Origin: Verrucomicrobiales bacterium
Lineage (GTDB): Bacteria > Verrucomicrobiota > Verrucomicrobiia > Verrucomicrobiales > V1-33
Direction of reading: 5' to 3'
Assembly: GCA_028293125.1 (NCBI GenBank)
Contig: JAQGPJ010000034.1
Coordinates: 22,465-86,464 of the forward strand
DNA length: 64,000 nucleotides
Both the position numbers and the translations under genes were made by a program. The notes under the pieces are model-generated. The model was not told where the DNA came from. It made no database searches and was given only the letters and a program-made list of their open reading frames with translations. Shown piece after piece: positions 2,769 through 24,356 of this stretch; positions within the stretch are counted from its first letter, which is position 1; each line of letters starts with the position of its first letter.

Positions 2769-4256
2769 TCACGCCAGACCGCGTGACGGATGCTCCATAA
2801 TGTCCATGATGGGATGGCCGTGGACATCGGTCAGGCGGCGCTCGACGCCATTGTGATAAAAGCTGAGGCGCTCGTGGTCCAGACCGAGAAGGTGCAGGAC
2901 GGTGGCGTGGAAATCGTAAACCGTGACCGGATTCACCTCCGCCTTGTAGCCGAACTCATCGGTGGCCCCGTAGCTGTATCCGGCTTTGACGCCGGCTCCG
3001 GCCATCCAGGCGGTGAAGCCTTCGGGATTGTGGTCGCGGCCGCTGGCCCCTTTCTGGAAGGTGGGCATGCGGCCGAACTCGGTGCACCAGATCACGAGAG
3101 TGTCCTCCAGCAATCCGCGCTGTTTGAGGTCCGCCAGCAGGGCGGCGGTCGGCTGGTCCATCACCTCGCCGTGTTTGGCGTACTGCTCGGCCAGGACCTT
3201 GTGCCCGTCCCAGTTGCTGACGCCCTCCCCGCCGGTCTGATAGGCCCCGTTGAACAGCTGCACGAAGCGCACGCCCTTCTCCACCAGCCGGCGCGCGAGA
3301 ATGCAGTTGCGCGCATAGGCCGCCTTGAGGTCCTTGACCGGATTGCCCCCTTGGTCGGCCCCGTACATTTTGAGGATGTGGGCGGGCTCGTTGGTGAGGT
3401 CGGACACCTCCGGCACGGAAAGCTGCATGCGGGCGGCCAGCTCATAGCTGGAGATACGGGCGGCCAGTTCGCTGTCACCCGGGAAGCGCTCCAGATGATG
3501 GCGGTTGAGGGAGGACAGAAATCGGCGTGTGGCTTTGTCCGAGTCCGGCGTGATACCCGCCGGCCGCGCCAGGTTGCGCACCGGCTGGGAGGCATTGAAA
3601 TCCGTGCCTTGGAACGAGGCCGGCAGGAAACCGGAGCCCCAGAAATTCCCGGCGGACTGCGGGGCTCCGCGGGGGTCGGGAATGGCCACATAGGCGGGCA
3701 GGGTTTCGTTCTCGGTGCCGAGGGCGTAGGTGGTCCACGCTCCCATGCTGGGGAATCCATCCAGCGTGAAGCCGGTGCCCATGAAGTTCTCGCCGGGGCC
3801 ATGGGTATTGGTTTTTCCAGTGAGCGAGTGGATGAAGCACATCTCGTCCGCCAGCGCGCCCAGATGCGGCACCAGATCGGACACCATCTTGCCCGACTGC
3901 CCCCGGGGGTGGAAGGCCCATGGGCTCTGATTCAAATTGCCCTGCTCGCCTTGGAAAGTGACCAGATTCGCCCCGCCCGGCATGGGCTGGCCGTGGCGGC
4001 GGATGAGCTCGGGCTTGTACTCGAACGTGTCCACCTGGCTGACCGCGCCGGAGCAGAAGATCATCAGCACCTTTTTGGCTTTGGGCGTGAAGTGGGAACG
4101 CCGCGTGCCGTTGGGATCGGCGGGATTGATCACCGGACGGATGGGAACGCCGTTGGCCAGCAGGTTCCCCCGGCTCAGGAGGTGGGTGAGGGCAATGCCG
4201 CCCAGACCGGTGGCGGTGTCACGGAGAAAATGGCGTCGGCTGAGCAGCGGATGCAT
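2769..4256 (-). CDS. DUF1501 family (sulfatase-like) Tat-exported protein
   Basis: Tat motif [64 protein letters not shown]. Confidence 0.92.
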
Positions 4257-4352
4257 GGGGGAAAAGTCCGGAAAATGGGGTGGAAAAATGGGGTGCCGGC
4301 CGTCGCATGCGCTGCGGAGCGGATGGCGGCGGGCATGAAAGGGAAAAACCAG

Positions 4353-6986
4353 TCAGAAAACGAAGAGGAACTCGCTGGTGTTGAAGAGGGCGCGGCAGAA
4401 GGCGGGGAGTCCCCCGCTTTCGATGAAGGCGGTGGAGGCCGATTTTTCAAACCCGTCCGGAGCCCGCCCCCAGAGCAGACGGTAGGCGAGCTCCGCCTGA
4501 TCGCCGGGCCGGGAGCCGGCCTCAGTTGTCAGGCGGCCGGCGAAGAGATCCGCCTGCTGAAGCACAAAGCGGCTGTTGAAGAGATTGAGCGCCTGCAAGG
4601 GGGTATTGGAGCGGCTGCGGCGCGGCATGACCAAGCTGCCATCCGGACAGTCCAAGGAACGGAACACGCCGTCATTGGTCTGCCGGATGCGGGTCTGATA
4701 GACCATGCGGCGGAATTCGGAGGGGCTGAATTTCTCCTTGGGGAAATAGTGCATCACGTTCTCATTCTCCACCTCCACCAGATAGAACCCCGGTCCCCCG
4801 GCCTCCTGATTGAGGGTGCCGGAAACGGTCAGCATGCTGTCCCGGATGGCCTCCGCCTCCAGGCGGCGGGGTGGAAAGCGCCAGAGCAGCCGGGCATCGG
4901 CATCTGTCTTCAGCGCCTCCGCACGCGGGGCGGAGGACTGGCGGAAGGCGGCGGAGCGCAGGATGAGGCGCTGCATGTGCTTCACCGACCAGCCGCTTTT
5001 CATGAACTCGTCCGCCATCCAGTCCAGCAGTTCCGGATGGGTGGGGCGCGAGCCGTTGACCCCCAAGTCACTGGGGGTGTCCACGATGCCGCAGCCAAAG
5101 ATGTAATGCCAGATCCGGTTGACCTGCACGCGGGCGGTCAGCGGGTTGTCGGCGGAGGCCATCCAGTCCCCCAGCCGCAGACGGCGCTGCTGCTCGGGGG
5201 TGTCCACGTCCATCCCGGGACCGTTCAGCACGGTCAGGGCTCCCGGAGCCACCACCTCCTTTTTCTGAAGCGGATCACCGCGGTGCAGCCGGAAGGTGGG
5301 ACCCGGCTGACTGAAGGTTCCAAGCCAGGCGGTGGATCCGCCCTCCAGTCCGGCCACGCGGGACCGGAGTTCCGCCACCTCGGCCTTCAACCGGCGGGCC
5401 TCATCCGCCTGCGGGCCGGAAAGCCGGCTGAGTACGCCGTCGGGATCGGCTTTTCCTCCAGCGAATGGCTGGCGGGTTTCCGAACTGGCGACCACGGTCC
5501 AGGCGGCGGCGGCGGCGGCGGCGGCGGGGGCGGAGGTTTCCGAGGTTTCCCTGGAGGAGATCACCGGACCGCCGGCGGGCGGTGCCATGACCTCAAAACG
5601 GTAGGCGGTGGGAAGGCGGTCAGGGAATTGCTCCGTGCGGTCGCGGCTCCACACGATGCGGTGGATGCGGACGGCGGACGGAAAGGAGATTTTCACCCAG
5701 CCGGAGCCCGAAGCGTTTGAAATCCAGCTGCGGTCATTGCCGGTGCGGCCATCGTTGATGTGCTCCTGTTTATGAGCCTCGTAGCCGGGGAGAGTGCCCG
5801 AAACCTCCGCCACGGCTCCGGCGGAGGCGAGGGCCACATTGTTGCCGGCCTCATCGTAAATCTCCACTTCATCCACGCAGGGCTCCGCGCCGGTGGAGGC
5901 GGTGATGGTGAAACGCACCGCAATGGCCGCAGCCGGCGCGAATTCCTCTACATTCATGCGGTGATTGACCGGAGGCCGCAGGGCGGATGCCCCCCCGCCG
6001 GTCAGAGCCGGAGCCGAGGCCATGGTCCGCAGCTCCTCCAGCCGGCCCTCGGTTCCGGCCAGCGTTTTCCGCAGTTCCGCCAGCATTGGCGCCTTGCCGG
6101 GATCCGGCCGGGGATGCCAGGGCCGCTCCCCGTGGGTCACTCCCGCAAACACCGCCTGCATGGCGAAATAATCCTTCTGCAGGATGGGATCGAACTTGTG
6201 GTTGTGGCAGCGGGCGCAGCCCATGGTCAGCCCCAGAAAGGCGGTGCCCGTGGTGTTCACCATGTCCGCCAGCTCGTCCTCCCGCTGGGCCAGCGAGAGA
6301 TTGATGTCGGGGCTTTTGACAATGTCATACGGCCCCGCCACCAGAAACCCCGTGGCGGCGTCCGCTCCCAGGGCATCGCCCGCCAGCTGCTCACGGACAA
6401 ACTGGTTCCACGGCTTGTCGCTGTTGAAGGCATCGATCACATAATCCCGGTAGGGCCAGGCGGTTTTGCGCTCGCGGTTGGTCTCAAAACCGTTGGAGTC
6501 GGCGTAGCGCACCACATCCAGCCAGTGGCGCGCCCAGCGCTCGCCATAATGCGGGCTGGCCAGCACTTCATCCACCAACCGCTCCCAGGCGTCCGGGCGG
6601 GTGTCGGCCGCAAAAGCCTCCACCTGCTCGGGCGACGGCGGCAGACCGTGCATGACCAGATACAGCCGCCGGATCAGGGTGCGGCGGTCCGCGGGGCCGG
6701 AAGGCTCCAGGTGCTGCTCCTGGAGTTTCGCGGCCAGAAACTCATCAATTTCCCCCTGCGCCCAGGCCTTCCCGGTCTGGGGAGCCTCCGGACGCCTGAC
6801 CGGCTGATAGGACCAGTGGCTGGTAGTGATCTTTTCACCGTTCCCCGCCGGTGCCTTCCCCTCCGCGCCGGGGGCCGGCACTGTTCCGGCGGTGGCCGCC
6901 ACCAGGCCCAGCACCAAACCCGCGATCGCGGTGGCGCGGCGGGGACCGGTGGAGGAGTGATCGGTTTTCCAGGAACAGCTCATCAT
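4353..6986 (-). CDS. DUF1549/DUF1553 (PSD1, planctomycete cytochrome c-like) protein with inserted discoidin-like domain
   Basis: HWSYQP, YGERWARHWLDVVRYADSNG, CARCHNHKFDPI heme motif, NPLTARVQVNRIW, PTHPELLDW, RRLEAEAIRD, TPLQALNLFN. Confidence 0.92.
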   Translation of the reverse strand: MMSCSWKTDHSSTGPRRATAIAGLVLGLVAATAGTVPAPGAEGKAPAGNGEKITTSHWSYQPVRRPEAPQTGKAWAQGEIDEFLAAKLQEQHLEPSGPADRRTLIRRLYLVMHGLPPSPEQVEAFAADTRPDAWERLVDEVLASPHYGERWARHWLDVVRYADSNGFETNRERKTAWPYRDYVIDAFNSDKPWNQFVREQLAGDALGADAATGFLVAGPYDIVKSPDINLSLAQREDELADMVNTTGTAFLGLTMGCARCHNHKFDPILQKDYFAMQAVFAGVTHGERPWHPRPDPGKAPMLAELRKTLAGTEGRLEELRTMASAPALTGGGASALRPPVNHRMNVEEFAPAAAIAVRFTITASTGAEPCVDEVEIYDEAGNNVALASAGAVAEVSGTLPGYEAHKQEHINDGRTGNDRSWISNASGSGWVKISFPSAVRIHRIVWSRDRTEQFPDRLPTAYRFEVMAPPAGGPVISSRETSETSAPAAAAAAAAWTVVASSETRQPFAGGKADPDGVLSRLSGPQADEARRLKAEVAELRSRVAGLEGGSTAWLGTFSQPGPTFRLHRGDPLQKKEVVAPGALTVLNGPGMDVDTPEQQRRLRLGDWMASADNPLTARVQVNRIWHYIFGCGIVDTPSDLGVNGSRPTHPELLDWMADEFMKSGWSVKHMQRLILRSAAFRQSSAPRAEALKTDADARLLWRFPPRRLEAEAIRDSMLTVSGTLNQEAGGPGFYLVEVENENVMHYFPKEKFSPSEFRRMVYQTRIRQTNDGVFRSLDCPDGSLVMPRRSRSNTPLQALNLFNSRFVLQQADLFAGRLTTEAGSRPGDQAELAYRLLWGRAPDGFEKSASTAFIESGGLPAFCRALFNTSEFLFVF
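5502..5525. repeat. (GGC)8 trinucleotide run encoding poly-Ala in a loop of the DUF1553 protein
   Basis: ggcggcggcggcggcggcggcggc read directly. Confidence 0.85.
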
Positions 6987-7024
6987 GATGGGATTAGATT
7001 ACGGCCTGCGGGCCCTTTAAACAA

Positions 7025-7040
7025 TTCCCCGATCGGGGGA
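7025..7040 (-). promoter_or_regulatory. Palindromic regulator site 1 (TCCCCCGATCGGGGAA on - strand) abutting the -35 of the DUF1553/DUF1501 promoter
   Basis: Followed directly on the - strand by TTGTTT (7024-7019), a 17-nt spacer, TAATCT (7001-6996), then ATG at 6986. Confidence 0.7.
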
Positions 7041-7150
7041 GGGACTCCCTGCGTCCCCCGAGCGGCCGGCACCGGGTTTTGAAGGCGGGAGGGATAAAAT
7101 CACAAGCCACCGGACCGTGGGGACGGCTGCCGGCGGCGGCTTGGAATGGG

Positions 7151-8173
7151 TCAGGCATCAATGCGGACCGCGCGGTAATAACGCTTGGTCTTTCCCGCCT
7201 TAGAGTAGACCCGGCTGATTTTCACACCCTTGCCGCGCACGTTTTCCTCCACCGGCACCCAAGCGGTCATATCCTCGGATTCCTGAATGGTGTAGGTTTT
7301 GCCATTGGCCGCGTAGAAGCTGAACTCCACCGCGGTCTCGATGACGGCGTTGCCCTCCGGGGTGCTGGCGGGATTCCCGGGATCAAATCCCAGCGCGGTC
7401 TCCACGGTGTCGTCGAATCCGTCGCCATCCTTGTCCAGGGTCACTGTAGCGGGACCGTAGAGTTCGATTTCATCAATATCCGTCCCCTCGCCTATCCCCG
7501 TGGCGGGAACCAGAATCCGCAGGGCGGTGGCCTGCACTCCGGTGCTGCCCGCCCCTTGGGTGATGGCGAACTGATGCCGGTAAAACGCGGTGAACAGTTC
7601 ACCGGGCACGGTGTCATCATTGGCCGCGTAGTCCAGCGTGCCGACCGTCTGCCAGCCGGTGGCCGCATCACCGGTGTCGGGCGTGGTGCCATCGGGAAAG
7701 GAGACGCGGGTGATCTGCACCGTGTAAATGCCAAGACAGCGGTCCGTGAGCTGCCCCAGAAAAACCTCCTGCGGATCTGTGACGTTATTGCCATTGTCCC
7801 GGCCGATGGCGAACGAGGACAGAGTGGTGAGCCCCCCGAGTGAAATGCCCGCAAAGGCATTCGGCGCATTCCCGCCGATCCAGCTGTTGGAGTTGCCGTA
7901 GAGCCCGTCGTTCAGGTTGGCAGCGACATGAAAGGGAATGTTCAGCAGCGGGCCGAGATCACTGGAGGTGAAAGCGGCGGCTCCGGCGGCGGTCGCCAGA
8001 TTGGTGGGCACCGGGGCGGTCTCCTCCTCCGAAAAATGATCAGCTTCATTGCCGTCCCAAGTGAGAGTGAACCCCTCTGAAGCAGTGATCCGCATGTCCG
8101 CCCGCGCGGTGAGCGCGGCCAGAGGCAGAAACGGGATACCAATTAAAAAACCAAGGCGGGAGAGTGTTTTCAT
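7151..8173 (-). CDS. Secreted discoidin/F5-8C-like protein with conserved C-terminal tail domain
   Basis: Signal peptide (MKTLSR...TARA), NLA...NLNDGLYGNSNSWI...ATALRILV...IDEIELYG, then DKDGDGFDDTVETALGFDP tail. Confidence 0.75.
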   Translation of the reverse strand: MKTLSRLGFLIGIPFLPLAALTARADMRITASEGFTLTWDGNEADHFSEEETAPVPTNLATAAGAAAFTSSDLGPLLNIPFHVAANLNDGLYGNSNSWIGGNAPNAFAGISLGGLTTLSSFAIGRDNGNNVTDPQEVFLGQLTDRCLGIYTVQITRVSFPDGTTPDTGDAATGWQTVGTLDYAANDDTVPGELFTAFYRHQFAITQGAGSTGVQATALRILVPATGIGEGTDIDEIELYGPATVTLDKDGDGFDDTVETALGFDPGNPASTPEGNAVIETAVEFSFYAANGKTYTIQESEDMTAWVPVEENVRGKGVKISRVYSKAGKTKRYYRAVRIDA

Positions 8174-8289
8174 AGGCTGCAGGAATAAATGGAGATAAGC
8201 GGTGGGGCGCGGTCTTCCCTGCCCCGGAACCACCGGAGCAGGGAACGCCCTGCGGATGCAGACTGCCAAATGTCCTTATTGTCCTGCCA

Positions 8290-8305
8290 TCCCCCGTACG
8301 GGGGA
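8290..8305. promoter_or_regulatory. Palindromic regulator site 2 (TCCCCCGTACGGGGGA)
   Basis: Perfect palindrome (18 bp including flanks, 8289-8306) in the intergenic region upstream of the 8173 start. Confidence 0.7.
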
Positions 8306-8332
8306 TTTCATTAAAATGACATTTATCAGTTT

Positions 8333-9361
8333 TTACTCCGCCTGACGCACGGAGCGGTAGAAAAGTTTTGTCTGACCGCGCTTGGAGTACAGCCGGGTGA
8401 TTTCCCCGCCCAGACCGGGAATATTCATCTCGACCGCATTCCAGTTCTGAAGATCGCTGGAGGACTCAATGGTGTATTTTTTGTTCTTGGCGGCGTAAAA
8501 GCTGAATTCGACGGCGGTCTCGATGCCGCTGCGCGACTCCGGGGTGCTGGCAGGGCTTCGGGGGTCGAAGCCCAGTGCGGTCTCCACGGTGTCGTCAAAT
8601 CCATCGCGGTCAGAATCCGGATTCAGCGTGGACAGCAGGGTGTCGTCGATGGCGAAGGTATCCGTGAATTCAAAAACCCGCACGGTTTCGATAAGCCCGT
8701 TGAAGCCGCGGTTGTTGCCGGGCCCGACATTGCCGGCCCCGATGCGGATGCCGGGCGCGGGATCGTAATCGGGGGAGTTGGTGCTGGTGGCCAACAGGCC
8801 ATCCACATAAAGCTCCCATTTGCCGTTTTTGTGGACGGCGGCCACGTGCTGAAGCTGGCCGGTGCGCACCGGAGCGGCGGCGGCGCTGATCGCCACATTC
8901 GACTGATGGATGGCCCAGGCGCCGTTGCCGAAAGTCTGGAGCAGAATACCGTTGGTGCCGCCACCCAGTTCCACCACTGCCAGCTCCTGATTCGGATTCG
9001 GAGTGACGTCGATGCGGACAATGGCCTCCACACCCCACTTGGCGATATCGGTGGGATTCACATCCGCCTCCGCACCCTCGAAATACTCTGTGGCGGAAAC
9101 ATTATGGGCACTGTCCGTATTGGCGAAAAGCACCCCCAGAACGCTGCCTGTTGCGGCATAAACCGGGGAGCCGGCCACTGTCAGGTCCAGTTCGCCGGTC
9201 GTGTCCACCAGCGTCTCCGCCGCCGGGGAGCCGGCGGTGCCCTTCTCCTCTTCCCCCATCGTCCAGGTGTGCAGCACGGTGATATCCGCTTTCAGCAGTG
9301 CCGGAATGCCGGCCATGAGCATGCTCAGGAGAGCGGTGGGGAGAGGATGACTTGGTTTCAT
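8333..9361 (-). CDS. Secreted LamG/concanavalin-like jelly-roll protein with conserved C-terminal tail domain
   Basis: Signal peptide, WGVEAIVR, QHVAAVHKNGKWELYVDG, IRIGAG, FNGLIETVRVF, then DSDRDGFDDTVETALGFDP tail. Confidence 0.8.
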   Translation of the reverse strand: MKPSHPLPTALLSMLMAGIPALLKADITVLHTWTMGEEEKGTAGSPAAETLVDTTGELDLTVAGSPVYAATGSVLGVLFANTDSAHNVSATEYFEGAEADVNPTDIAKWGVEAIVRIDVTPNPNQELAVVELGGGTNGILLQTFGNGAWAIHQSNVAISAAAAPVRTGQLQHVAAVHKNGKWELYVDGLLATSTNSPDYDPAPGIRIGAGNVGPGNNRGFNGLIETVRVFEFTDTFAIDDTLLSTLNPDSDRDGFDDTVETALGFDPRSPASTPESRSGIETAVEFSFYAAKNKKYTIESSSDLQNWNAVEMNIPGLGGEITRLYSKRGQTKLFYRSVRQAE

Positions 9362-9490
9362 AGCGATTTTACTGGCAGGGGGAGGAATGCTGGGATTTAA
9401 GAAAGCCGAATGCGTCACAGCCGCGTGTCAGGCAGGAAAAGTCCGGTGCCAGACAGGGCGCATCGTGATTCATGAAGCGTTTGGTGAATA

Positions 9491-9506
9491 TACCCCGTTC
9501 GGGGGA
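9491..9506 (-). promoter_or_regulatory. Palindromic regulator site 3 (TCCCCCGAACGGGGTA on - strand)
   Basis: In the divergent intergenic region; on the - strand followed by TATTCA, a 17-nt spacer and CACGAT. Confidence 0.65.
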
Positions 9507-9550
9507 GAGACTTAATCATCCATCCGGCAAATTGTTTCACCTTAGCCTGC

Positions 9551-12500
9551 ATGAATTCCCGGTTTGCCACTGCCGCCCTGTTTCTGCTGCTGTTACCGGG
9601 AATGCCGGTGTCCGCACAGGCCCGGTTGCCGGGAACCCCTCTGCCCGGCTCCGCCCCGGCATCGGCCCTGCGGGAGCCGGTGCATCCCCGGCGCAATGTG
9701 GAGGAATTCCCCGCCGTGCAGGCGCGTCTCCTCCGCTTCACCATCCTGCGGACCAGCGGACAGGAACCCTGCCTGGATGAGCTGGAGGTTTACGGTCCGG
9801 ACGCGCCGGAGCGGAATCTGGCGCTGGCCAGTGCGGGCACGCGGGCGCGGGCTTCGGGCACCTACCCGGAGTACCGCATCCACGCCTTGGCGCATATCAA
9901 CGACGGCCTCTACGGCAACGGACACAGCTGGATATCCAATACGGCGGTCGGCAGCTGGGTGGAACTGGAGTTTCCCGCACCGGTGCGCATCAGCCGCGTG
10001 GTCTGGAGCCGGGACCGCGAGCGGAAGTTCATCGACCGTCTGGCCACGGAATACCGCATTGAGGTGTCCGAGAGCGCAGCACCGGACGGTGCCGGCAACA
10101 GCTCGCGGCAGGTGGCCTCCTCCGCGGACCGCAGGCCACTGCCGCAGGAGGCCATGGGAGCCGGACTCCTGTTCAATGCACCGGGGAATTTTGCGGCGGC
10201 TCCCGCCCCGGTGGCTCCGCCGGGCAATGACCGGCCCGCAGCCCGCGATTATCTGCTGCGCATCTGGCAGACCGCCGACGGGCTGCCCTCGAACACCGTC
10301 ACCTCCCTGCTGCAGACCGGCGATGGCTGGCTGTGGGTGGGCACCACCAATGGGCTGGCCCGCTTTGATGGCCGGCGGTTCACGGCCTTTGGGGAGGATC
10401 AGGGACTGCGGAATCTGAATATCACCTGCCTGTTCGAGGACCGGGAGGGCACGCTCTGGGCGGGCACAGAGGGCGGCGGGCTGGCCTTCCGGCGCGGCGG
10501 GCGGTTCCATACCCTGCCCACCGGCACCAGTCTGGCCGGCAATACCGTGCTGGCACTGGCCGCGGATGCAGAGGGTGTGCTGTGGATCGCCACGGCGGAG
10601 GCCCTGCTGCAATACCGCAGCGGCCATCTGGAGCGGGTTCTGAATAGCCCGGTCACCGGTCTGGCCATGGGGGAGAACGGCCTCTGGCTGCTGCATGAGT
10701 CCGTGCTTTCACGCTGGGATGGCGGGAAGCTGGTGAAGGCTCCCGCCAATCTCGATCCGTCCTGCTTCTCCTCCATCAGCGCCCTGGCCGGAGGGAAGGA
10801 TGGGGCGCTGTGGTTCGGCGGGGCCAATGGGTATATCGGCCGTCTGGCGGGCGGGGCGGTGACCACCTTCGGCGATGGCCATACGGTGCTGACATCCAAC
10901 ACCTGGCAGTTGCTGGCCATTGCCGGCGGTGATTTGTGGATCGGCACCTCCTCCAGCGGGCTGGCCCGGCTGCGGGGACATGATCTGCTGCCGCTGACCA
11001 CGGATGACGGCCTGCCCTCCAACTGTGTGCGCGCCCTGTGTCAGGACCGCACGGGCAATCTGTGAGCCGGGACGGCGGGCGGAGGGCTGGTCCGGCTCCG
11101 GCCCCGGCGCATCCAGGCTCTGACCACGCACGATGGGCTGTCCCACAATGCGATCATGGCGTTGGCGGAGGACGCGCAGGGATCCGTCTGGATCGGCACC
11201 GACGGAGGCGGACTGAACTGCTGGAGGGATGGCAAGGCGGTGCCGGACACCCCCAGCTATGTTCTGGACAATCAGACGGTCTCCGCTCTGGCGCTGCCGG
11301 CGGATGGATCGCTCTGGCTGGGCACCGCCGGCGGGGGAGTGTTCCACATCGATAAAGGGAAGGTCTCGCATCTCACCACCGCGCAGGGGCTGCCGGGCCT
11401 CATGGTCACCTCCCTGTGCGGGGATTCCAAAGGACGGCTGTGGATCGGCACTCTGGACGGCGGTCCAGCCTGCCTGGACGGCACCCGCATCACCCGGCCG
11501 CCGGCCATCGCGGCGCTGGCGCACCAGCCGGTGACCGGCATTTTGGAGGATGCCGCCGGCGGTCTGTGGTTTGGCACCAAGGGCCAGGGGCTGGCCCGTC
11601 TGGATGCCGGCACCGGCACCTTGGTCTGGTGGACACGTTCCGAGGGACTGGCCAGCGGCTTCATCCGGACCCTGCACGAGGCCCCGGCGGGCACGGTGTG
11701 GGCGGGCACCAATGGCGGCCTGACCCGTTGGCGGAATGGCCGGCTTTTCAATTTCACAGGCCGCCACGGCCTGCCGAATGTGGTGGTTTCCCAGATTCTG
11801 GATGATGGCGCGGACAATCTGTGGCTGGGCACGAGCGGGGGGGTGCTGCGAGTTTCCCTGGATTCCTTTGAGGCTGTGGCGTCGGGCCGGCATGACCGGC
11901 TGCAAATCCTGGCGCTGGGCACGGAAAACGGTCTGCCCAGCCTGGAATGCACCGGCGGCAGCCAGCCGGCAGGCCTGCGCACCCGCGATGGACGGCTCTG
12001 CTTTGGCACCGTGGGCGGGCTGGCGGTGATCCAGCCCCGGGACTTTCAGGGACCTTCGGAATTCCCGCCGGTGGTCATCGAATCCTGGACCTCCGGCTCC
12101 GCCACAGTCCGGCTGGAGCGCGGAGGAGGGACCGGTCCGCTTGAAGTGCCGCCGGGAACGGCGCGGCTGGGATTTGAATTCACTGCCCTGTCACCGGGCT
12201 CCCCGGAGCGCATCCGCTTCCGCTACCGGCTGGCGGGACTTGAGGAGTCCTGGGTGCAGGCGGAGCCGGGAGCGGAGCGCACCGCCACCTACACCCAGCC
12301 GGCACCGGGAAGTTATGTGTTCGAAGTGATGGCCAGCGCGGACAATGGCCCTTGGAGCGGTGTTCCCGCCCGGATCCCGCTGCGGGTGCTGGCTCCATGG
12401 TGGCGGCAGCCGTGGGCGGCGGCGGCGGGGGTGCTGCTGGCCGTGGCGTCGGTGGCCGGGCTGGCCCGTGCGCTGACCCGCCGCCGTCTCCAACGGCGTC

Positions 12501-13243
12501 TGCGGGAGGTGGAGCGCCAGTTTACCTTGGAGCGGGAGCGGTCGCGGATCGCCCGCGATATCCACGACGATCTGGGGGCCAATCTCACCCAGATCAGCCT
12601 GCTCAGCGCCTTGGGGCAGGAGCAGCGGCACGAGCCGGAAAAGGCCCGCGCTCAATTCGCCGCCATCGCGGCCACCTCCGGCGAGCTGGTGCAGGCCATG
12701 GACGCCATTGTGTGGGCGGTGAACCCCAGTCAGGATACCCTCGAAAGCCTGGCCCGCTACCTGGTGCGGTTCGCAGGCGATTTTTTTGAACACACCCAAG
12801 TCCGCCTGCGGCTGGATGTGCCGCCCCAGCTCCCCCGCGCAGACCTGTCCTCGGAGGTGCGGCACAATCTCTTCCTCGCCGCCAAGGAGGCGCTCCACAA
12901 TGCCTTGCACCATGCCGGAGCCGGGGAGGTGCGGTTGAGCCTTTCCGTGGAGGGCCGCACACCTGACATCACCACCACCGCAGGCCGCAATGCCCATGGA
13001 GTGCCGGGAGGCCTGATGGTGGAAATTGAGGACGATGGCTGTGGCTTCACCCCCGAACGGGTGGCGGATCAAGGAGGCAACGGGCTCGGAAACATGCACC
13101 ACCGGCTGACAGAGTGCGGCGGCGGCTGCGTGATTGACTCCATTCCCGGACGCGGCACCCGCGTCCAACTCCGCATCCCCCTGTGCCTGACGCCTCCCCA
13201 GCCCCGGGTTACCCATCCGGCTTCCCTGCGTCCTGTTCCATGA
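9551..13243 (+). pseudogene. Sensor histidine kinase (discoidin-like + Reg_prop beta-propellers + YYY + TM + HisKA_3 + HATPase) interrupted by in-frame TGA at 11063-11065
   Basis: ORFs 9551-11065 and 11156-13243 are in the same frame. The junction reads GNL*AGTAGGGL where the repeat consensus is G.LW.GT.GGGL. H-box RIARDIHDDLGANLT, EALHNA, DDGCGF, GNGLGNM. Confidence 0.85.
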
Positions 13244-13872
13244 ATCCTCCGCCCATCCGCGTCGCCCTTGTGGAGGACAATGCCCGGCTCCGCGAGCAGT
13301 TGTCGGATTTCATCGCGGCCTCAGACGGCTTTGCCTGTGTGGCGGCCTTCCCCACCGCCGAGGCCGCCCTCCAGGGGCTGCCCAAAACCGCTCCGGATGT
13401 GGTCCTCATGGACATCGAACTGCCCAAAATGTCGGGCGTGGACTGCGTGGCCCGCCTCCGGGAACTGATGCCGGAGGTCAGCGTGGTCATGCTGACCGTT
13501 TACGACAACAGCTCCCACATCTTCAAAGCCTTGGAGAACGGGGCCAGCGGCTATCTTCTCAAACGCACGCCTCCCGTGGAGCTGCTGCGCTCCATCGCCG
13601 ATGTGTGCCACGGCGGTGCGCCCATGAACAGCCACATCGCCCGCCTCGTGGTCCAGTCCTTCCACCGGCGCGGCGCCTCGCCCCGGCCCACGGAGAACCT
13701 GACTCCCCGCGAGGAGGAGATCCTCCGCCTCGTCGCCAAAGGCTTCATCAACAAGGAAATCGCCGAGGAGCTCGGCATCGCCCTCGAAACCGTGCGCCAG
13801 CACCTGAAGAACTGCTATTCCAAGCTCCACGTCCGCACCCGCACCGAAGCCGCCATGCGGCTGCTGTCGTGA
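13240..13872 (+). CDS. NarL/LuxR-family response regulator
   Basis: VALVED, DVVLMDIELP, GASGYLLK, LTPREEEIL, NKEIAEELGI; ATGA overlap with the kinase stop. Confidence 0.95.
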   Translation: MNPPPIRVALVEDNARLREQLSDFIAASDGFACVAAFPTAEAALQGLPKTAPDVVLMDIELPKMSGVDCVARLRELMPEVSVVMLTVYDNSSHIFKALENGASGYLLKRTPPVELLRSIADVCHGGAPMNSHIARLVVQSFHRRGASPRPTENLTPREEEILRLVAKGFINKEIAEELGIALETVRQHLKNCYSKLHVRTRTEAAMRLLS

Positions 13873-19334: not shown

Positions 19335-19601
19335 CTCAAAGCCTCACAGCAGGCAGCGGCAGGGACCGGACGCAATGGGAAAGCCTGCATCGGTTCCACA
19401 GAGGCCTTTTGTTCATTTTTCCGCAATAAAAGCCCGGCCTCTGGTCTGATCCTGGCTTGACGCCGGGGGGCGTATCTTCCTAAAACGTCACTGGCTTTTA
19501 AAAGACGGCACCCGCCGCCCGGCGGCAGCCGTCCCTCCCCGTGACGGCTGACGGTGCCTCTCTTCATTTTCCTATCTTCCGAAGAATTTTCCGCCCCCCT
19601 T

Positions 19602-22600
19602 ATGAAAATCCGTTTTTCCGCCCCCGCCGCGCTGTGGATGGCCGCCACCGCCGCCTGGGCCGCCCCCACCATCGCCAATCTGCCGGCGAACAACTTCACA
19701 CCGGTCACCGCCAGCGCGGGAGTGCGGGTCACCGCCTACACAGGGGTGCCGCCGGCGGTGACACTTTACTACGGCCCTACGGACGGGGGTGCCGACACCG
19801 CGTCATGGGCGGGTTCCGTCAGCCTGGGCACGGTGCGGTTTTCAGCCACCGGCAACATGACCGGCCTTACGCCGGGCACCACTTATTTTTACCGCGCGTA
19901 TGCCACCCACTCCACCGGCAATGCCTGGGCGGAGGGGACCGGAACCTTCACCACGCCGGTTGTCTCCGCTCCGGTTGTGGTGACCCGTGAAGCCTCCGGC
20001 ATCGGACTCAATGCCGCCACCGTCAACTATGAGGTCACCTCCACGGGCGATGAGACGCCGGCGGTCACTCTCTATTACGGCCCCGCCGACGGCGGCACCA
20101 ACGCCGCCGCCTGGGCCGGAAAGGTTTCCGCCGGTGCCGTGGCCGGGCGCGGCACCGCCGCCCTGTCCGGTCTGACGGCCAACACCGTCTATTACTACCG
20201 CGCCCAGGCTTCGAATTCCGCCGGCAGCGTGTGGGCTCCTGGCAGCGCCAGTTTCACCACCGCCGGCGTCACGCCGCCGGCGGTGGACACCGTGGCCCCC
20301 ACCCATGTCCGCCCGACTACGGCCACGCTGAACGGGGAGGTCACCGCCGCCGGCAATGCCTCGCCGCAGACCACCTTTTACTGGGGCTCCACCGACGGCG
20401 GCACCGATGCCGCCACTTGGCAGCACACCGCCCCGGCAGGTGTCTCCAGCGGCGCTTTTTCCCGCGTGCTGACCGGGCTCACGCCGGGCAGTCCCTTGTT
20501 TTACCGCGCCTTTGCGCAGAACGCCGCCGGCGGTGTCTGGGCTCCCAAAAGCCAGGCTTTTGCCACCATGCAGGCCGAGGCTCCGCCCAGCGTGATCATC
20601 AACGAGGTCCACTATGACCCGCTGGATGCCACCAAAAGCCAGGAGTTCGTGGAGCTTTACAATCCCACCGCCGCCGATGTGGACCTCGCGGGCTGGAAAA
20701 TCACGGATGCCGTGGAGTTCACCTTTCCCCCCGGCACCGTGATTCCCGCCGGGGGATACTTCTGTGCGGTCCAAAGCCTGGCCGCCTGGCCGGCAGTGGT
20801 GAACAAGGCCGGGCCCTTCACCGGCAAGCTGAGCAACCAAGGTGAAATCATTGAGCTGCGCAATGCCGCCAACCAGCTGGTGAATGCGGTGGACTACGGG
20901 GCAGGCTTTCCGTGGCCGACCGCCTCCAACGGCCTCGGTCCCTCCATGGAACTGCTGCATCCCAATCTGGACAATGGGCTCGGAGGCTCCTGGCGGCGGT
21001 CCGTCACCAACGCCCCCACTCCGGGGGCCGCCAACTCCGTGCTGCTGACCAATGCCTCCCTGGCCCCGCCGGCCATCCGCGGTGTGAAACACGTCCCGGA
21101 AGCCCCTGTCTCCGGCGTGCCCGTCGCCGTCAGTGCCACCGTGACCGATCCCGACGGCGTGGGAAGTGTGGTCCTGCGCTATCAGATAGTGGATCCCGGA
21201 GCCTACATCCGGAGAACCGACGCCGCCTTCACCAACGCTGCCAACTGGACGGAGCTGCCCATGGTGGATGATGGCACCAGCGGGGATGCGACCGCCGGGG
21301 ATTCCATCTATACGGTGACCATCCCCGCGGAGGTGCAGACCCACCGCCGTCTCGTGCGTTACCAGATTACCATCACCGACGCCACCGGCACCCCTCCGGA
21401 GGTGCCGGGGAATTCCGTGCGCGTGCCCTACGCCGATGATGAGCAGCCGAACTTCGCCTACTTCGTTTACAACGGCGTGCCCGCCTGGAGCGGTGCCATG
21501 CGGCCCGTGGCCTTCTCAGGGAATGCGGCCACGCCCATCCAGGAATATTCACCGGATGTCCTGAACTCCATCGAGCCTTGGCATCTCATCGCCAATGAGG
21601 CCAATATCATCAGCTGCCAGTACGGCGGTTCCGACGGGGTCAAATTTTTAGGCACACTGGTTTACCGGGGCAAGGTCTACGACCACATCACCTACAACGT
21701 GCGCGGCATTGGCTCCACCTATGTCAGCGGCAAAAACAAATGGGGGCTCAAATTCAACCGCGCCCGTGATTTCCAGGCTTATGACAACTGGGGGCGTCCC
21801 TATGCGGAAACTTGGAATTCCCTGGGGCTGAACGCCTGCGCCTCCCCATGGGCGTCCGTGCACCGGGGGGCCGCCGGCCTGGATGAGGCCGCGCCTTACC
21901 GGCTTTATGAACTGGCGGGCGTGCCGTCCCTGCGCACCAGCTACGTCCACTGGCGTGTCATCCGCCGCGGGGCGGAGGTCAATGACGCCACCAAAACCGT
22001 CACCGGCGATCCCATGGGGGCCAATATCCGGGGCCAGTATTCGGGGGATCTCTGGGGGCTCTATCTCGCCTTGGAGCCCACGGAGGGGAATTTCCTGGAT
22101 GAGCGGGGCTTGGAGGACGGGAATATTTACGCCATCGAGGGCGAGGCCGGCGATAAAAAGCACCAGGGCAGCACCCAGCCCGCCACCAGCGCCGACTGGA
22201 CCACCTTCAACAACGCCGTGAAAGCCACGGGAGCCAGCGCCCGGAACGAGCAGTGGTTCCGCGACAACATGGACCTGCCGGCGCTTTACACCTTTCTGGC
22301 TCTGAACCGTCTGACTGGAAACACGGATGTGCGGCCCGGGGACAACTACCGGTATTACCACCGCCCCTCGGACAACCGCTGGGTCATCATGCCCTACGAT
22401 CTCGACATGATGTTTATCCCCGCCCACCACTGGGGCGGAACCATGGACAACGTGGTGGTCGCTGGCCAGCCCAACAGTATCCGCGCCATCATGCGCTGGC
22501 CTGCCTTGGCTTTGGAATACCGGAACCGGTGCCGGGAGCTGCTCAGCCTTGTGGCTTCGGACGCGGCACCCGCCGGAGGGCAGTTCGGCCAGCTGATGAA

Positions 22601-24356
22601 TGAATATGCCCGCATGGTGAACCCCCCGGGCCAGCCACTCACCTGGGCGGACTTGGATGCCGCCCTGTGGAATCTCCACCCCCGATCCCAGGGCAGCGGT
22701 GCCAACTCGGGCCAGTCCAGCCACCGGGGCAACTTCTTCCGCGCTTCCTATCTGGACGGCGGCCGCGGCGGCCTCGCCGGCACTGTGGCCACCGGCACTT
22801 GGATTCGCTCCCTGCCGGATCCCGACAATGACAAGTTCAGTGATCACGAGGGTCTGACCCAGTGGTTCATCAACTTCTCCACCAATTCCTGGCCCGGCGG
22901 AGCCACCGACTGGGTGCGCAAGGCCACCAACAGCTCCGGCGGCGGCACGGACAATGACGTCAACCGCCAGAAGGGATACGGCTACAAATACCTGGAGTGG
23001 GAATCCATCTACGGCGGCTACGCCAATGCCAATGTGAACCCCGCCGCCACCCTGGCCGATTTGGCGTTTCCGCTGACGCCGGTCATCCTCAGCAGCGGGG
23101 CTCCCGGTTTCCCCGCCAACGATCTGCGCTTCACCAGCTCCGGCTTTGAGGATCCGCAGGGACCGGACACCGCCGCCGCCGTGCAGTGGCGTCTGGGCGA
23201 AATCTCCGCACCCGGCATTCCCGGTTATGATCCCGGCCAGCCCGCCATCTATGAAATTGAGGAGGTGTGGAACTCCGGGGAAATCGCCTTGGCTTCGCCG
23301 GTTCCCGCCGAAATCCGCGTCCCCGCCAGCGCTGTCCGCGGAGGCCGCACCTACCGCGCCCGCGTCCGCCATAAGGACAGCACCGGACGCTGGTCCTTCT
23401 GGTCCGCGCCTGTGCAGTTCATTGCCGGCAGTGTGAACACGGATGCCCTGGCCAGCGCCCTGCGCATCACGGAGATTAATTACAACCCCGCCGCCCCCAC
23501 GGCGGCGGAAACCGCCAATGCGGGCTGGAATCCCCTGTGGAATGCCCAGCAGTTCGAATTCATCGAGCTGACCAACATCAGCCCTCAGGCGGTCGATTTG
23601 ACGGATGTGAGGTTCACCAAGGGCATCGATTACGATTTCCCCTCCGGCTTCCAGCTTGCCGCCGGAGCCCGCGTGGTGGTCTGCAAGAATCGCGATGCCT
23701 TCGCCATCCGATACGGCGGCGCAGTGCCAGTGGCTCCCGGCTCCTACGATCCGGACAGTCTCAGCAACAGCGGCGAGGAGCTCAAGCTCAGCTACGGTGC
23801 CGGCACCGCTATTTTTGAATTCGCTTACGGCACGCAGACTCCCTGGCCCTCCAGTGCCGATGGCGGCGGAGCCAGCCTGGTGCTCATCCAGCCCGAAAAA
23901 CCCCGACTGGATCACGGAGACGCCTTTGAATGGCGCGCCAGTCGGACAGCCTATGGCTCGCCGGGCGGCGACGACCGCACCTCCTGGGTGGAATGGGCCG
24001 CGGGGTATCCCGGCATTGGCGGCATGACGGCGGATGATGACCGGGACGGCTTGGTCAATCTGATGGAGTTCACCCTTGGCACCCACCCGCTTCAGCCCTC
24101 CTACAATGCCCTGCCCTCCGCCGGTCTGGACAACGGCCTGCCGGTCTTCACCAGCACTTACAATCCCTGGGCCTCCGGTGCGCTGCGGACGATGGAGTTC
24201 TCGTACGATCTCAGCAACTGGGCCGGCTCCGGACCGCCCATCAGCCGCGTCGTCAACGCCGACGGCACGTTCACGGACACTTGGCGCTCGCCCTCGCCTG
24301 CCGGATCCTCCGCTCCCGCCCGCCATTTCGCGCGGCTGAAGGTGACGGCTTTCTGA
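19602..24356 (+). CDS. Large secreted CotH-kinase / lamin-tail-domain protein with three N-terminal FN3-like repeats
   Basis: Signal peptide; 3x (VTLYYG.TDGG...W...GLT..T.YYYRA.A.N..G..WA) repeats; LTD motifs VIINEVHY/EFVELYN and LRITEINYNP/EFIELTN; CotH motifs NVRG, DNYRYY, PYDLD; C-terminal DDDRDG.NLMEFTLG.P tail. Confidence 0.85.
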   Translation: MKIRFSAPAALWMAATAAWAAPTIANLPANNFTPVTASAGVRVTAYTGVPPAVTLYYGPTDGGADTASWAGSVSLGTVRFSATGNMTGLTPGTTYFYRAYATHSTGNAWAEGTGTFTTPVVSAPVVVTREASGIGLNAATVNYEVTSTGDETPAVTLYYGPADGGTNAAAWAGKVSAGAVAGRGTAALSGLTANTVYYYRAQASNSAGSVWAPGSASFTTAGVTPPAVDTVAPTHVRPTTATLNGEVTAAGNASPQTTFYWGSTDGGTDAATWQHTAPAGVSSGAFSRVLTGLTPGSPLFYRAFAQNAAGGVWAPKSQAFATMQAEAPPSVIINEVHYDPLDATKSQEFVELYNPTAADVDLAGWKITDAVEFTFPPGTVIPAGGYFCAVQSLAAWPAVVNKAGPFTGKLSNQGEIIELRNAANQLVNAVDYGAGFPWPTASNGLGPSMELLHPNLDNGLGGSWRRSVTNAPTPGAANSVLLTNASLAPPAIRGVKHVPEAPVSGVPVAVSATVTDPDGVGSVVLRYQIVDPGAYIRRTDAAFTNAANWTELPMVDDGTSGDATAGDSIYTVTIPAEVQTHRRLVRYQITITDATGTPPEVPGNSVRVPYADDEQPNFAYFVYNGVPAWSGAMRPVAFSGNAATPIQEYSPDVLNSIEPWHLIANEANIISCQYGGSDGVKFLGTLVYRGKVYDHITYNVRGIGSTYVSGKNKWGLKFNRARDFQAYDNWGRPYAETWNSLGLNACASPWASVHRGAAGLDEAAPYRLYELAGVPSLRTSYVHWRVIRRGAEVNDATKTVTGDPMGANIRGQYSGDLWGLYLALEPTEGNFLDERGLEDGNIYAIEGEAGDKKHQGSTQPATSADWTTFNNAVKATGASARNEQWFRDNMDLPALYTFLALNRLTGNTDVRPGDNYRYYHRPSDNRWVIMPYDLDMMFIPAHHWGGTMDNVVVAGQPNSIRAIMRWPALALEYRNRCRELLSLVASDAAPAGGQFGQLMNEYARMVNPPGQPLTWADLDAALWNLHPRSQGSGANSGQSSHRGNFFRASYLDGGRGGLAGTVATGTWIRSLPDPDNDKFSDHEGLTQWFINFSTNSWPGGATDWVRKATNSSGGGTDNDVNRQKGYGYKYLEWESIYGGYANANVNPAATLADLAFPLTPVILSSGAPGFPANDLRFTSSGFEDPQGPDTAAAVQWRLGEISAPGIPGYDPGQPAIYEIEEVWNSGEIALASPVPAEIRVPASAVRGGRTYRARVRHKDSTGRWSFWSAPVQFIAGSVNTDALASALRITEINYNPAAPTAAETANAGWNPLWNAQQFEFIELTNISPQAVDLTDVRFTKGIDYDFPSGFQLAAGARVVVCKNRDAFAIRYGGAVPVAPGSYDPDSLSNSGEELKLSYGAGTAIFEFAYGTQTPWPSSADGGGASLVLIQPEKPRLDHGDAFEWRASRTAYGSPGGDDRTSWVEWAAGYPGIGGMTADDDRDGLVNLMEFTLGTHPLQPSYNALPSAGLDNGLPVFTSTYNPWASGALRTMEFSYDLSNWAGSGPPISRVVNADGTFTDTWRSPSPAGSSAPARHFARLKVTAF

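Follow-up and report, generated by a model that had tools for sequence, protein, structure and literature searches.

The window analysed here is a 64,000-nt stretch of DNA (contig JAQGPJ010000034.1, positions 22,465-86,464; assembly GCA_028293125.1) from a Verrucomicrobiales bacterium (V1-33), with a G+C content of about 65%. Its subject is a six-gene cassette at 2769-13872, in which a sensor histidine kinase and a NarL/FixJ-family response regulator adjoin a PSCyt2-PSD1 protein (DUF1549 and DUF1553 domains; hereafter the PSD1 protein) and a DUF1501 protein. Conservation among related loci, together with structural modelling, makes it probable, if far from assured, that the cassette is the local regulon of this two-component system, that the PSD1-DUF1501 pair belongs to the regulon and that the system senses a glycan. 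This had been proposed in an earlier note on the same DNA, which described a sense-and-respond cassette; local regulation that takes in the PSD1-DUF1501 pair is borne out by synteny and by the palindrome, whereas neither a fixed set of six genes nor an intact sensor in this genome was found. The arrangement of four minus-strand and two plus-strand genes was confirmed by open reading frame (ORF) listing and Pfam scans, and the three links described between the genes, namely a domain, a C-terminal tail and a palindrome in common, are real.

Few gene families of Planctomycetota and Verrucomicrobiota are as strongly expanded as the DUF1501 and PSCyt/PSD1 pairs. The cassette offers a dedicated sensor bearing a copy of the central domain of the pair itself and a short, conserved candidate operator that defines a regulon, and sister loci with the same kinase type and the palindrome before sulfatases or a fucosidase narrow the candidate ligands. 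The operator, the repeated domain sharing and a predicted complex go beyond the original proposal. The complex, with a haem motif at its interface, is a concrete structural hypothesis and, if it holds, the same logic could assign ligands elsewhere.

The candidate operator and its gene neighbourhood

The kinase gene (9551-13243, plus strand) overlaps at its end the gene for the response regulator (13183-13872, plus strand). On the minus strand lie the genes for a Laminin_G_3 (LamG) protein (8333-9418; longest ORF 361 aa), a secreted discoidin-like protein (7151-8269; longest ORF 372 aa), the PSD1 protein of 877 aa (4353-6986) and the DUF1501 protein of 495 aa (2769-4256). Three transcription units in the cassette are preceded by the palindrome CCCCGWWCGGGG (at 7027, 8292 and 9493). 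The copy CCCCGATCGGGG (7027-7038), a probable operator, is centred about 46 nt before the PSD1 start codon, CCCCGTACGGGG (8292-8303) lies upstream of the discoidin gene, and CCCCGTTCGGGG (9493-9504) is part of the divergent promoter region and 47-58 nt upstream of the kinase ATG. The whole genome (6.48 Mb) contains four exact copies of CCCCGWWCGGGG, three of which are in the intergenic regions of the cassette; the fourth, on contig C84, is inside a long ORF and was taken as a chance occurrence. Copies of CCCCGNNCGGGG number 30 in the genome versus about 57 expected from base composition, and only four of these have an A/T centre, namely the three of the cassette and the one on C84. A promoter scan returned no sigma-70-like sites, against 1.6 expected, an uninformative result.

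Twenty kinase loci were compared, comprising the window, seven loci from related genomes, six from genome contigs and six from metagenomes, and 139 other loci retrieved by the same searches served as the control. There are 26 exact sites in the 288.8 kb of the kinase loci and 2 in the 1,829 kb of the control loci, an enrichment of about 80-fold. An exact or one-mismatch site is present no more than 130 nt upstream of the kinase start in 15 of the 19 loci with upstream sequence, and the palindrome stands before PSD1 in eight of the nine loci holding a PSD1 orthologue. Even loci with kinases of no more than 43-46% identity to that of the window retain it (L083, L084 and L158). Because the palindrome is conserved and enriched, terminator-like sites show no excess and the third site lies between diverging genes, it is read as the putative binding site of the NarL-type regulator. 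In four loci two sites are present 30-33 bp apart (L035, 6149/6182; L036, 6150/6180; L080, 4027/4060; L155, 1161/1194), and these paired palindromes sit in the divergent promoter region at a spacing of about three helical turns.

The regulator consists of a REC domain (87.5 bits, E 8.4e-25) and a GerE helix-turn-helix domain (65 bits, E 4.7e-18), the composition of the NarL/FixJ family. Its nearest NCBIfam model is NarL, at 136.8 bits against an equivalog cut-off of 250, and it is therefore a member of the family and no NarL orthologue. A one-mismatch palindrome, CCCCGAACGGGT, occurs at 13051-13062, within the 3' coding end of the kinase and just upstream of the regulator gene.

In the close set of 15 loci, whose kinases share 57% identity or more, the kinase and regulator have one or two discoidin genes beside them in 14 (the contig of the exception starts at the kinase). 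A PSD1 orthologue (50-66% identity) is present in nine, the contigs of the other six ending too early, and DUF1501 (67-85% identity) in seven, the remaining contigs ending first. As read from these neighbourhoods, the conserved core is the kinase-regulator pair, the discoidin protein or proteins, and PSCyt2/PSD1 with DUF1501. When the six-gene arrangement was checked for synteny this core proved to be conserved and the LamG gene did not: a small LamG-like gene was found only in L153, where the N-terminal part matches (47% over aa 7-148), and in most relatives a Lamin-tail domain (LTD)/CotH protein of 1,513-1,720 aa is encoded between the discoidin gene and PSD1, where the window has the LamG gene. 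Gene order varies, with the targets divergent from the kinase in this genus and in genome G017, and downstream of the regulator in G013, L075 and L082; genes beyond DUF1501 are not conserved among the relatives. The closest match to that LTD/CotH gene in this genome, at about 50% identity, is on contig C49, where the giant LTD/CotH protein at C49:39338-44569 holds two internal discoidin-like domains related to the 372-aa protein. An LTD/CotH gene in the window itself (19554-24356, plus strand) was considered as the orthologue of the relatives' cassette gene and rejected, since only the LTD domains match; it encodes a 1,600-aa secreted paralogue with Lamin-tail, CotH and purple-acid-phosphatase-N-like domains.

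The three loci with distant kinases bear on the class of ligand. L084 contains the regulator, the palindrome, two F5_F8/NedA-like proteins, a sulfatase with SGSH_C and a GH29 alpha-L-fucosidase; in L083 the palindrome precedes a 1,316-aa F5_F8 protein and a sulfatase; and L158 has two palindromes, a sulfatase and F5_F8 proteins. L083 has a second palindrome, in the divergent region upstream of SDR, enolase-superfamily, Amidohydro_2 and DHDPS-family genes, a divergent operon whose family content is that of a predicted sugar-acid pathway. The F5_F8 protein and sulfatase of the distant loci stand in the place of the discoidin-bearing PSD1 protein and DUF1501, which suggests that the ligand may be a fucose- or galactose-containing, possibly sulfated glycan.

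The shared domain and the predicted complex

The kinase is arranged as a signal peptide, a discoidin-like N-domain (9659-10075), Reg_prop repeats, Y_Y_Y, a transmembrane helix, HisKA_3 and HATPase_c. With Pfam scores of 91.4 and 87.8 bits for Reg_prop and 41.6 bits for Y_Y_Y, its predicted periplasmic part is the N-domain followed by two Reg_prop propellers and Y_Y_Y. Residues 333-470 of the PSD1 protein are 49% identical to kinase residues 37-170 (E 3e-41), and the central discoidin-like beta-sandwich of the PSD1 protein (aa 333-501; 5484-5990, minus strand) is homologous to the kinase N-domain. With the 372-aa protein, the kinase domain aligns over 105 aa at 28% identity (E 6e-8). The eight kinase domains form one clade (support 92/68) in a tree built from 28 copies of the domain, and the sister clade (93/91) comprises all six neighbouring PSD1 domains and three others, the joint clade being supported at 81/92. 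Given this sister relationship, the kinase domain probably goes back to a single copying event, with the lineage of the adjacent PSD1 gene as the source. Kinase orthologues bearing the N-domain occur in 12 of the 38 genomes compared for the family, in three of seven genera, and no match spanning the N-domain and propeller was found in the 400 other genomes of the phylum sample. The fusion of N-domain and propeller in a kinase is represented by at least 120 clusters in the protein collection, and PF00754 is carried by many kinase homologues.

The earlier label discoidin is a tentative one for this domain, whose kinase copy reaches only 21 bits against the PF00754 cut-off of 28.2. A strand motif, '...LRFTI...EPC.DE.E.YGP', comes ahead of the remaining discoidin-like domain in the kinase and PSD1 and stands at the end of the domain in the 372-aa protein (9716-9799 versus 7451-7537), a displacement that may have arisen by circular permutation or may be what is left of an initial copy of the domain. 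The 372-aa protein itself has no Pfam match. The Atlas groups it with Verrucomicrobiota clusters in which 58% of members carry F5_F8_type_C and 55% TSP3_bac (score 0.95) and places its probable start at M33 (ATG 8173); the protein has a TSP3-like repeat and a C-terminal tail. The 361-aa protein is a member of the Laminin_G_3 family (PF13385; 55.6 bits against a cut-off of 27.6, E 8.8e-15), with a probable start at residue 20 (ATG 9361, also from the Atlas). The last 117 or so residues of the two secreted proteins are 56% identical (E 6e-37); for this tail Pfam gives only a hint of TSP3_bac (E 0.6) and the Atlas leads are below 0.9. In G006 (L031, 13002-14030) one of two tandem discoidin genes ends in PEP-CTERM and the other has the TSP3-like tail, and since PEP-CTERM takes the place of the tail in the sister gene, the tail may be an alternative device for surface anchoring.

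Both parts of the PSD1 protein score above the Pfam gathering thresholds (276.1 bits, E 2.8e-82, and 279.2 bits, E 3.6e-83), and the sequence CARCH at aa 257-261 (6204-6218, minus strand) is a predicted haem-binding CxxCH site in which C257, C260 and H261 are invariant in 27 of 27 sequences. The structural model (predicted local distance difference test, pLDDT, 84) has a helical PSCyt2 body, a hairpin of helices 296-329 and 525-548 that bears the beta-sandwich, and a mostly helical PSD1 domain. By VIA-align the central domain superposes on residues 637-778 of the galactanase BT0290, its C-terminal beta-sandwich, with Z 12.4 and a root-mean-square deviation (rmsd) of 2.9 over 131 residues. The whole model gave no Foldseek match in PDB at E<=1e-3, and the other rows of the wide VIA-align search (Z < 8) were coiled-coil look-alikes, the PSCyt2 and PSD1 domains not having been searched singly. 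A GGC/GCC repeat run in the PSD1 gene (5496-5554) encodes the poly-alanine stretch AAAAAAAA, which falls within the low-confidence linker after the central domain.

The DUF1501 protein is assigned by Pfam with 490.2 bits against a cut-off of 27 (PF07394, E 6.7e-147). At aa 6-12 it reads SRRHFLR, where all 34 aligned sequences share R7 and R8; this agrees with the twin-arginine motif consensus, and the protein is predicted to be exported by the twin-arginine translocation (Tat) system. Its model (pLDDT 83.8) was matched by Foldseek to sulfamidase, LtaS and sulfatases (E 4e-8, TM about 0.35) and by VIA-align to the alkaline phosphatase PafA (Z 19.8, rmsd 4.1, 287 residues aligned), ENPP6 (Z 19.7) and sulfatases (Z 18-19), a predicted fold of the alkaline-phosphatase/sulfatase superfamily. 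Conserved positions include S73 (32 of 34), D137, H152, WD350xH352, EFGR and GRD408H409. Orthologues 80-87% identical occur in at least 120 clusters, and the few of these named by source are from Verrucomicrobiota, Chthoniobacter, Pedosphaera, Planctomycetaceae and Pirellulales; within the family the PSD1 partner is only 62-66% identical, and neither it nor the kinase comes near DUF1501 in conservation. NCBIfam has no model for DUF1501 or the PSD1 protein. Sequence searches of PDB with the N-terminal part of the kinase, the 372-aa protein, DUF1501 and the PSD1 protein returned nothing below E 0.04, and no solved structure related by sequence to DUF1501 or the PSD1 protein was found there.

A complex was predicted from three chains, namely the PSCyt2 part, the PSD1 part and DUF1501, with the central domain excluded. 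The score was 0.78, against 0.08 for the best of three controls; among reference cases, 58 of 80 solved complexes and 2 of 110 mismatched pairs score as high, a rough calibration only, given the custom alignments and three chains used here. At least 90% of contacts are common to the runs, with a partner pLDDT of at least 79. The predicted interface is formed by the C-terminal helices of PSD1 and a helical insert of DUF1501 (aa 237-285), and it takes in C257 of the CxxCH site and DUF1501 residues 149-154 with the invariant H152. The prediction lends support to a putative docking of the PSD1 protein with DUF1501.

Together, these observations are compatible with the following mechanism. The periplasmic part of the kinase would bind a fragment of a glycan that most plausibly contains galactose or fucose and may be sulfated, and the kinase would then phosphorylate the regulator, a dimer of which, judging by conservation, may bind the palindrome CCCCGWWCGGGG. 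In this way the regulator would switch on the operon that encodes it, the genes for the two secreted proteins (discoidin and LamG) and the operon of PSD1 and DUF1501. In the periplasm, Tat-exported DUF1501 and the PSD1 protein are predicted to form a complex in which the discoidin-like domain, on its helical stalk, could recruit the ligand; the reaction itself, in which a sulfate or phosphate ester is probably cleaved, would be the task of DUF1501, beside the haem-binding CxxCH site.

The interrupted kinase and competing explanations

In this genome the kinase domains are all present in one frame, split into ORFs of 504 and 695 aa by a TGA at 11063-11065 (plus strand), at the position of a Trp codon in a Reg_prop repeat (GNLW|AGT). 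When contigs from public read runs were aligned to the region, the candidate source run had A at 11065, at a depth of 14.8, and three other runs had G (TGG). Of these three, one belongs to the study of the source itself and two to another study, and they represent related strains with contigs 90-99% similar. All seven full-length kinase orthologues (59-63% identical) are uninterrupted, the lone TGA, in G011, being the terminal stop. Because the candidate source run reads A, the related runs read TGG and the orthologues are intact, the stop is a real, recent, strain-level nonsense change; a recoding signal and an assembly slip were ruled out on the same comparison of runs and orthologues. The mutation has probably blinded the sensor in this particular genome.

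Several further points weigh against a glycan-responsive regulon. The compared loci are mutually related, so that their counts overstate independence; four of the 19 loci with upstream sequence have no palindrome before the kinase, and in L034 there is none before DUF1501-PSD1. The close cassettes contain neither a transporter nor a glycoside hydrolase, and the description of this cassette as a complete unit, which it was also said to be, does not hold for the same reason; the substrate inducibility ascribed to it is putative. The idea of sulfated fucose is drawn from three distant loci, and within L083 the sole NCBIfam match of the Amidohydro_2 protein, L-fucono-1,5-lactonase, scores 167 against a cut-off of 400, while the dehydratase is nearest to talarate/galactarate dehydratase and not to fuconate dehydratase, again below the cut-off. 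The kinase N-domain of L083 has no similarity to the neighbouring F5_F8 protein (E >= 1), and domain sharing is therefore not universal. The PSD1 copy of the domain has no PF00754 match and the kinase copy falls below the threshold, and discoidin domains can bind lipids or proteins too. The sulfatase motif C/S-x-P/A-x-R is at no conserved position in the 34 DUF1501 sequences, which places DUF1501, despite the predicted fold, outside the type I (formylglycine) sulfatases; and its conservation across lineages of the Planctomycetes-Verrucomicrobia-Chlamydiae (PVC) group fits generic chemistry better than substrate-specific chemistry. Finally, the TGG-to-TGA change leaves the kinase of this genome with a premature stop.

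It is possible, though we lean away from it, that the cassette in this genome is a decaying remnant, uninducible or constitutively off. The TGA of the likely source run, set against TGG in related strains, fits such decay, as does the loss here of the relatives' LTD/CotH gene and second discoidin gene; however, all other genes are intact and the three palindromes exact, the one nonsense mutation is of recent date and perhaps confined to a strain or to a minority, and cross-talk or read-through could still operate. The palindromes could also be intrinsic terminators or repeat elements beside genes that are merely adjacent, and a terminator scan does flag 7026-7040 and 8290-8304, with 5-bp stems. 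This we consider very improbable, since the scan total of 9 sites compares with 9.4 in shuffled sequence, the site at 9493 lies between diverging starts with nothing to terminate, a 2-nt centre is unable to form a hairpin loop, the sequence and not just the pairing is conserved across loci whose kinases are 43-63% identical, and the enrichment in kinase loci is pronounced.

The shared domain might instead be a protein-contact module, through which both the N-domain of the kinase and the central domain of PSD1 attach to one and the same partner, for example a secreted protein or the PSD1-DUF1501 complex, so that the kinase would sense the state of the machinery and not a free glycan. The position of the central domain on a stalk in the PSD1 model would suit docking, as would its scores below the Pfam thresholds for carbohydrate domains and the persistence of a PSD1-type N-domain (about 47% identity to PSD1 central domains) in the kinases of 43-46% identity even at loci with no PSD1 gene within 10 kb. 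Nevertheless, in the complex prediction, from which the central domain was left out, DUF1501 contacts the PSCyt2 and PSD1 domains, the nearest structural match is a galactanase beta-sandwich, and the neighbours are lectin-type proteins, sulfatases and a fucosidase; this explanation appears unlikely. We judge it more doubtful still that the system controls a surface or adhesion programme (discoidin, LamG and LTD/CotH proteins) with PSD1-DUF1501 as a bystander. The discoidin genes are indeed the most constant neighbours (14 of 15), one discoidin copy in G006 ends in PEP-CTERM, giant LTD/CotH proteins are typical of surfaces, and in G013 DUF1501-PSD1 lies downstream of the regulator without a palindrome. 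Set against this are the palindrome before PSD1 in nearly all loci that hold it, the probable descent of the kinase domain from the neighbouring PSD1 lineage, and a second cassette in this genome, on contig C76, that is made up of kinase, PSD1, DUF1501 and regulator only.

Related pairs and known systems

The genome contains 38 DUF1501-like loci, mostly beside a PSD1-like locus. The C76 cassette (G000 contig C76:21142-29220; locus L040, 3143-11220) encodes on one strand, in this order, a kinase, a PSCyt1/PSCyt2/PSD1 protein, DUF1501 and a NarL-type regulator. Its kinase, of 745 aa, has two F5_F8_type_C domains with HisKA_3 and HATPase_c and no propeller, and the sensor domains are each 36% identical to the adjacent PSD1 central domain (E 1e-31 and 2e-22). 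They differ from the sensor domain of the window, not being detected with the window kinase as query, and by sequence comparison the C76 cassette repeats the rule that the sensor domain of the kinase is common to the neighbouring PSD1 protein. Adjacency of a C76-type kinase and PSD1 is also found in G007 (80-82% identity). Two other pairs speak against a universal rule. The closest paralogous pair, on C15, has a central domain 45% identical but no two-component system, its neighbours being an amidohydrolase and a SulP permease. On C46 some 2 kb separates a PAS-HisKA_3 kinase and a NarL-type regulator from WD40, DUF1501 and PSCyt1/2-PSD1 genes; this PAS kinase is cytoplasmic, and no domain in common is evident from the Pfam domain lists, which were compared as lists and not directly. 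A domain-sharing kinase accompanies only two of about 38 pairs in this genome, and the expectation that the cassette would give a handle on what DUF1553/DUF1501 pairs respond to was overstated.

As a tentative and rather speculative generalisation, PSCyt2-PSD1/DUF1501 pairs may be modular periplasmic haem-metalloenzyme complexes in which a swappable beta-sandwich borne on a coiled-coil stalk sets the substrate specificity, the same domain having been copied onto a kinase as its sensor. If this were true, the dozens of pairs in a PVC genome would constitute a second, non-glycoside-hydrolase system for decorated (e.g. sulfated) glycans, parallel to polysaccharide-utilisation loci (PULs), and the kinase-borne copy of the domain would reveal the ligand of each pair.

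The regulatory part of the cassette resembles NarL/FixJ systems, in which a HisKA_3 kinase is paired with a REC and GerE regulator that recognises a short inverted repeat with a 2-bp centre before target genes and its own operon; the operator CCCCGWWCGGGG and the sensor architecture differ from theirs. DUF1501 resembles PafA, the ENPP/NPP phosphodiesterases and type I sulfatases in its core (Z 18-20 over 240-290 residues) and its D/H pairs, whereas identity to the alkaline-phosphatase superfamily is only 12-17% and the helical insert at aa 237-285 and the partner with a haem motif are peculiar to DUF1501.

In the Bacteroides hybrid sensors of PULs, Reg_prop/Y_Y_Y is the oligosaccharide-sensing domain, as described in the portions consulted of Martens et al. 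2011 (PMC3243724). The kinase of the window shares with these a large periplasmic Reg_prop and Y_Y_Y sensor, a position beside its presumed target genes and a carbohydrate-active association. It differs in having a HisKA_3 kinase and a separate, GerE-type regulator in place of a fused receiver and AraC helix-turn-helix, so that it is not a hybrid two-component system of the Bacteroides type, and further in its extra N-terminal discoidin-like domain, its PSD1-DUF1501 output and the absence of a SusC/SusD pair. A PUL combines a SusC-like TonB-dependent transporter and a SusD-like protein with adjacent glycan-degrading enzymes, and this combination is not present at the cassette; no SusC- or SusD-type Pfam match was found in its six genes, all of which belong to other families, or in the flanking ORFs. 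The analogy with a PUL drawn for the PVC group can accordingly be kept for the type of sensor and for the sulfatases and fucosidase of the distant loci, but not in the sense of a complete PUL.

Modules of DUF1501 and PSCyt/PSD1 are known from Planctomycetes, Verrucomicrobia and Lentisphaerae (Kamneva et al. 2012, PMC3542564; He et al. 2017, PMC5615132). In the parts of these papers drawn on here, the modules are expanded and consist of a twin-arginine DUF1501 protein and a CxxCH partner, sometimes with a Laminin_G_3 or F5_F8_type_C insert; a carbohydrate role is suspected and the function is described as unknown. The same parts, supplementary neighbourhood figures aside, mention no two-component system, operator or sensor-shared domain. 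The pair of the window has the composition, Tat signal and CxxCH site of these modules and shares in their expansion, with 38 loci in this genome; it differs from them in belonging to a conserved, putative regulon and in the predicted complex of its two proteins.

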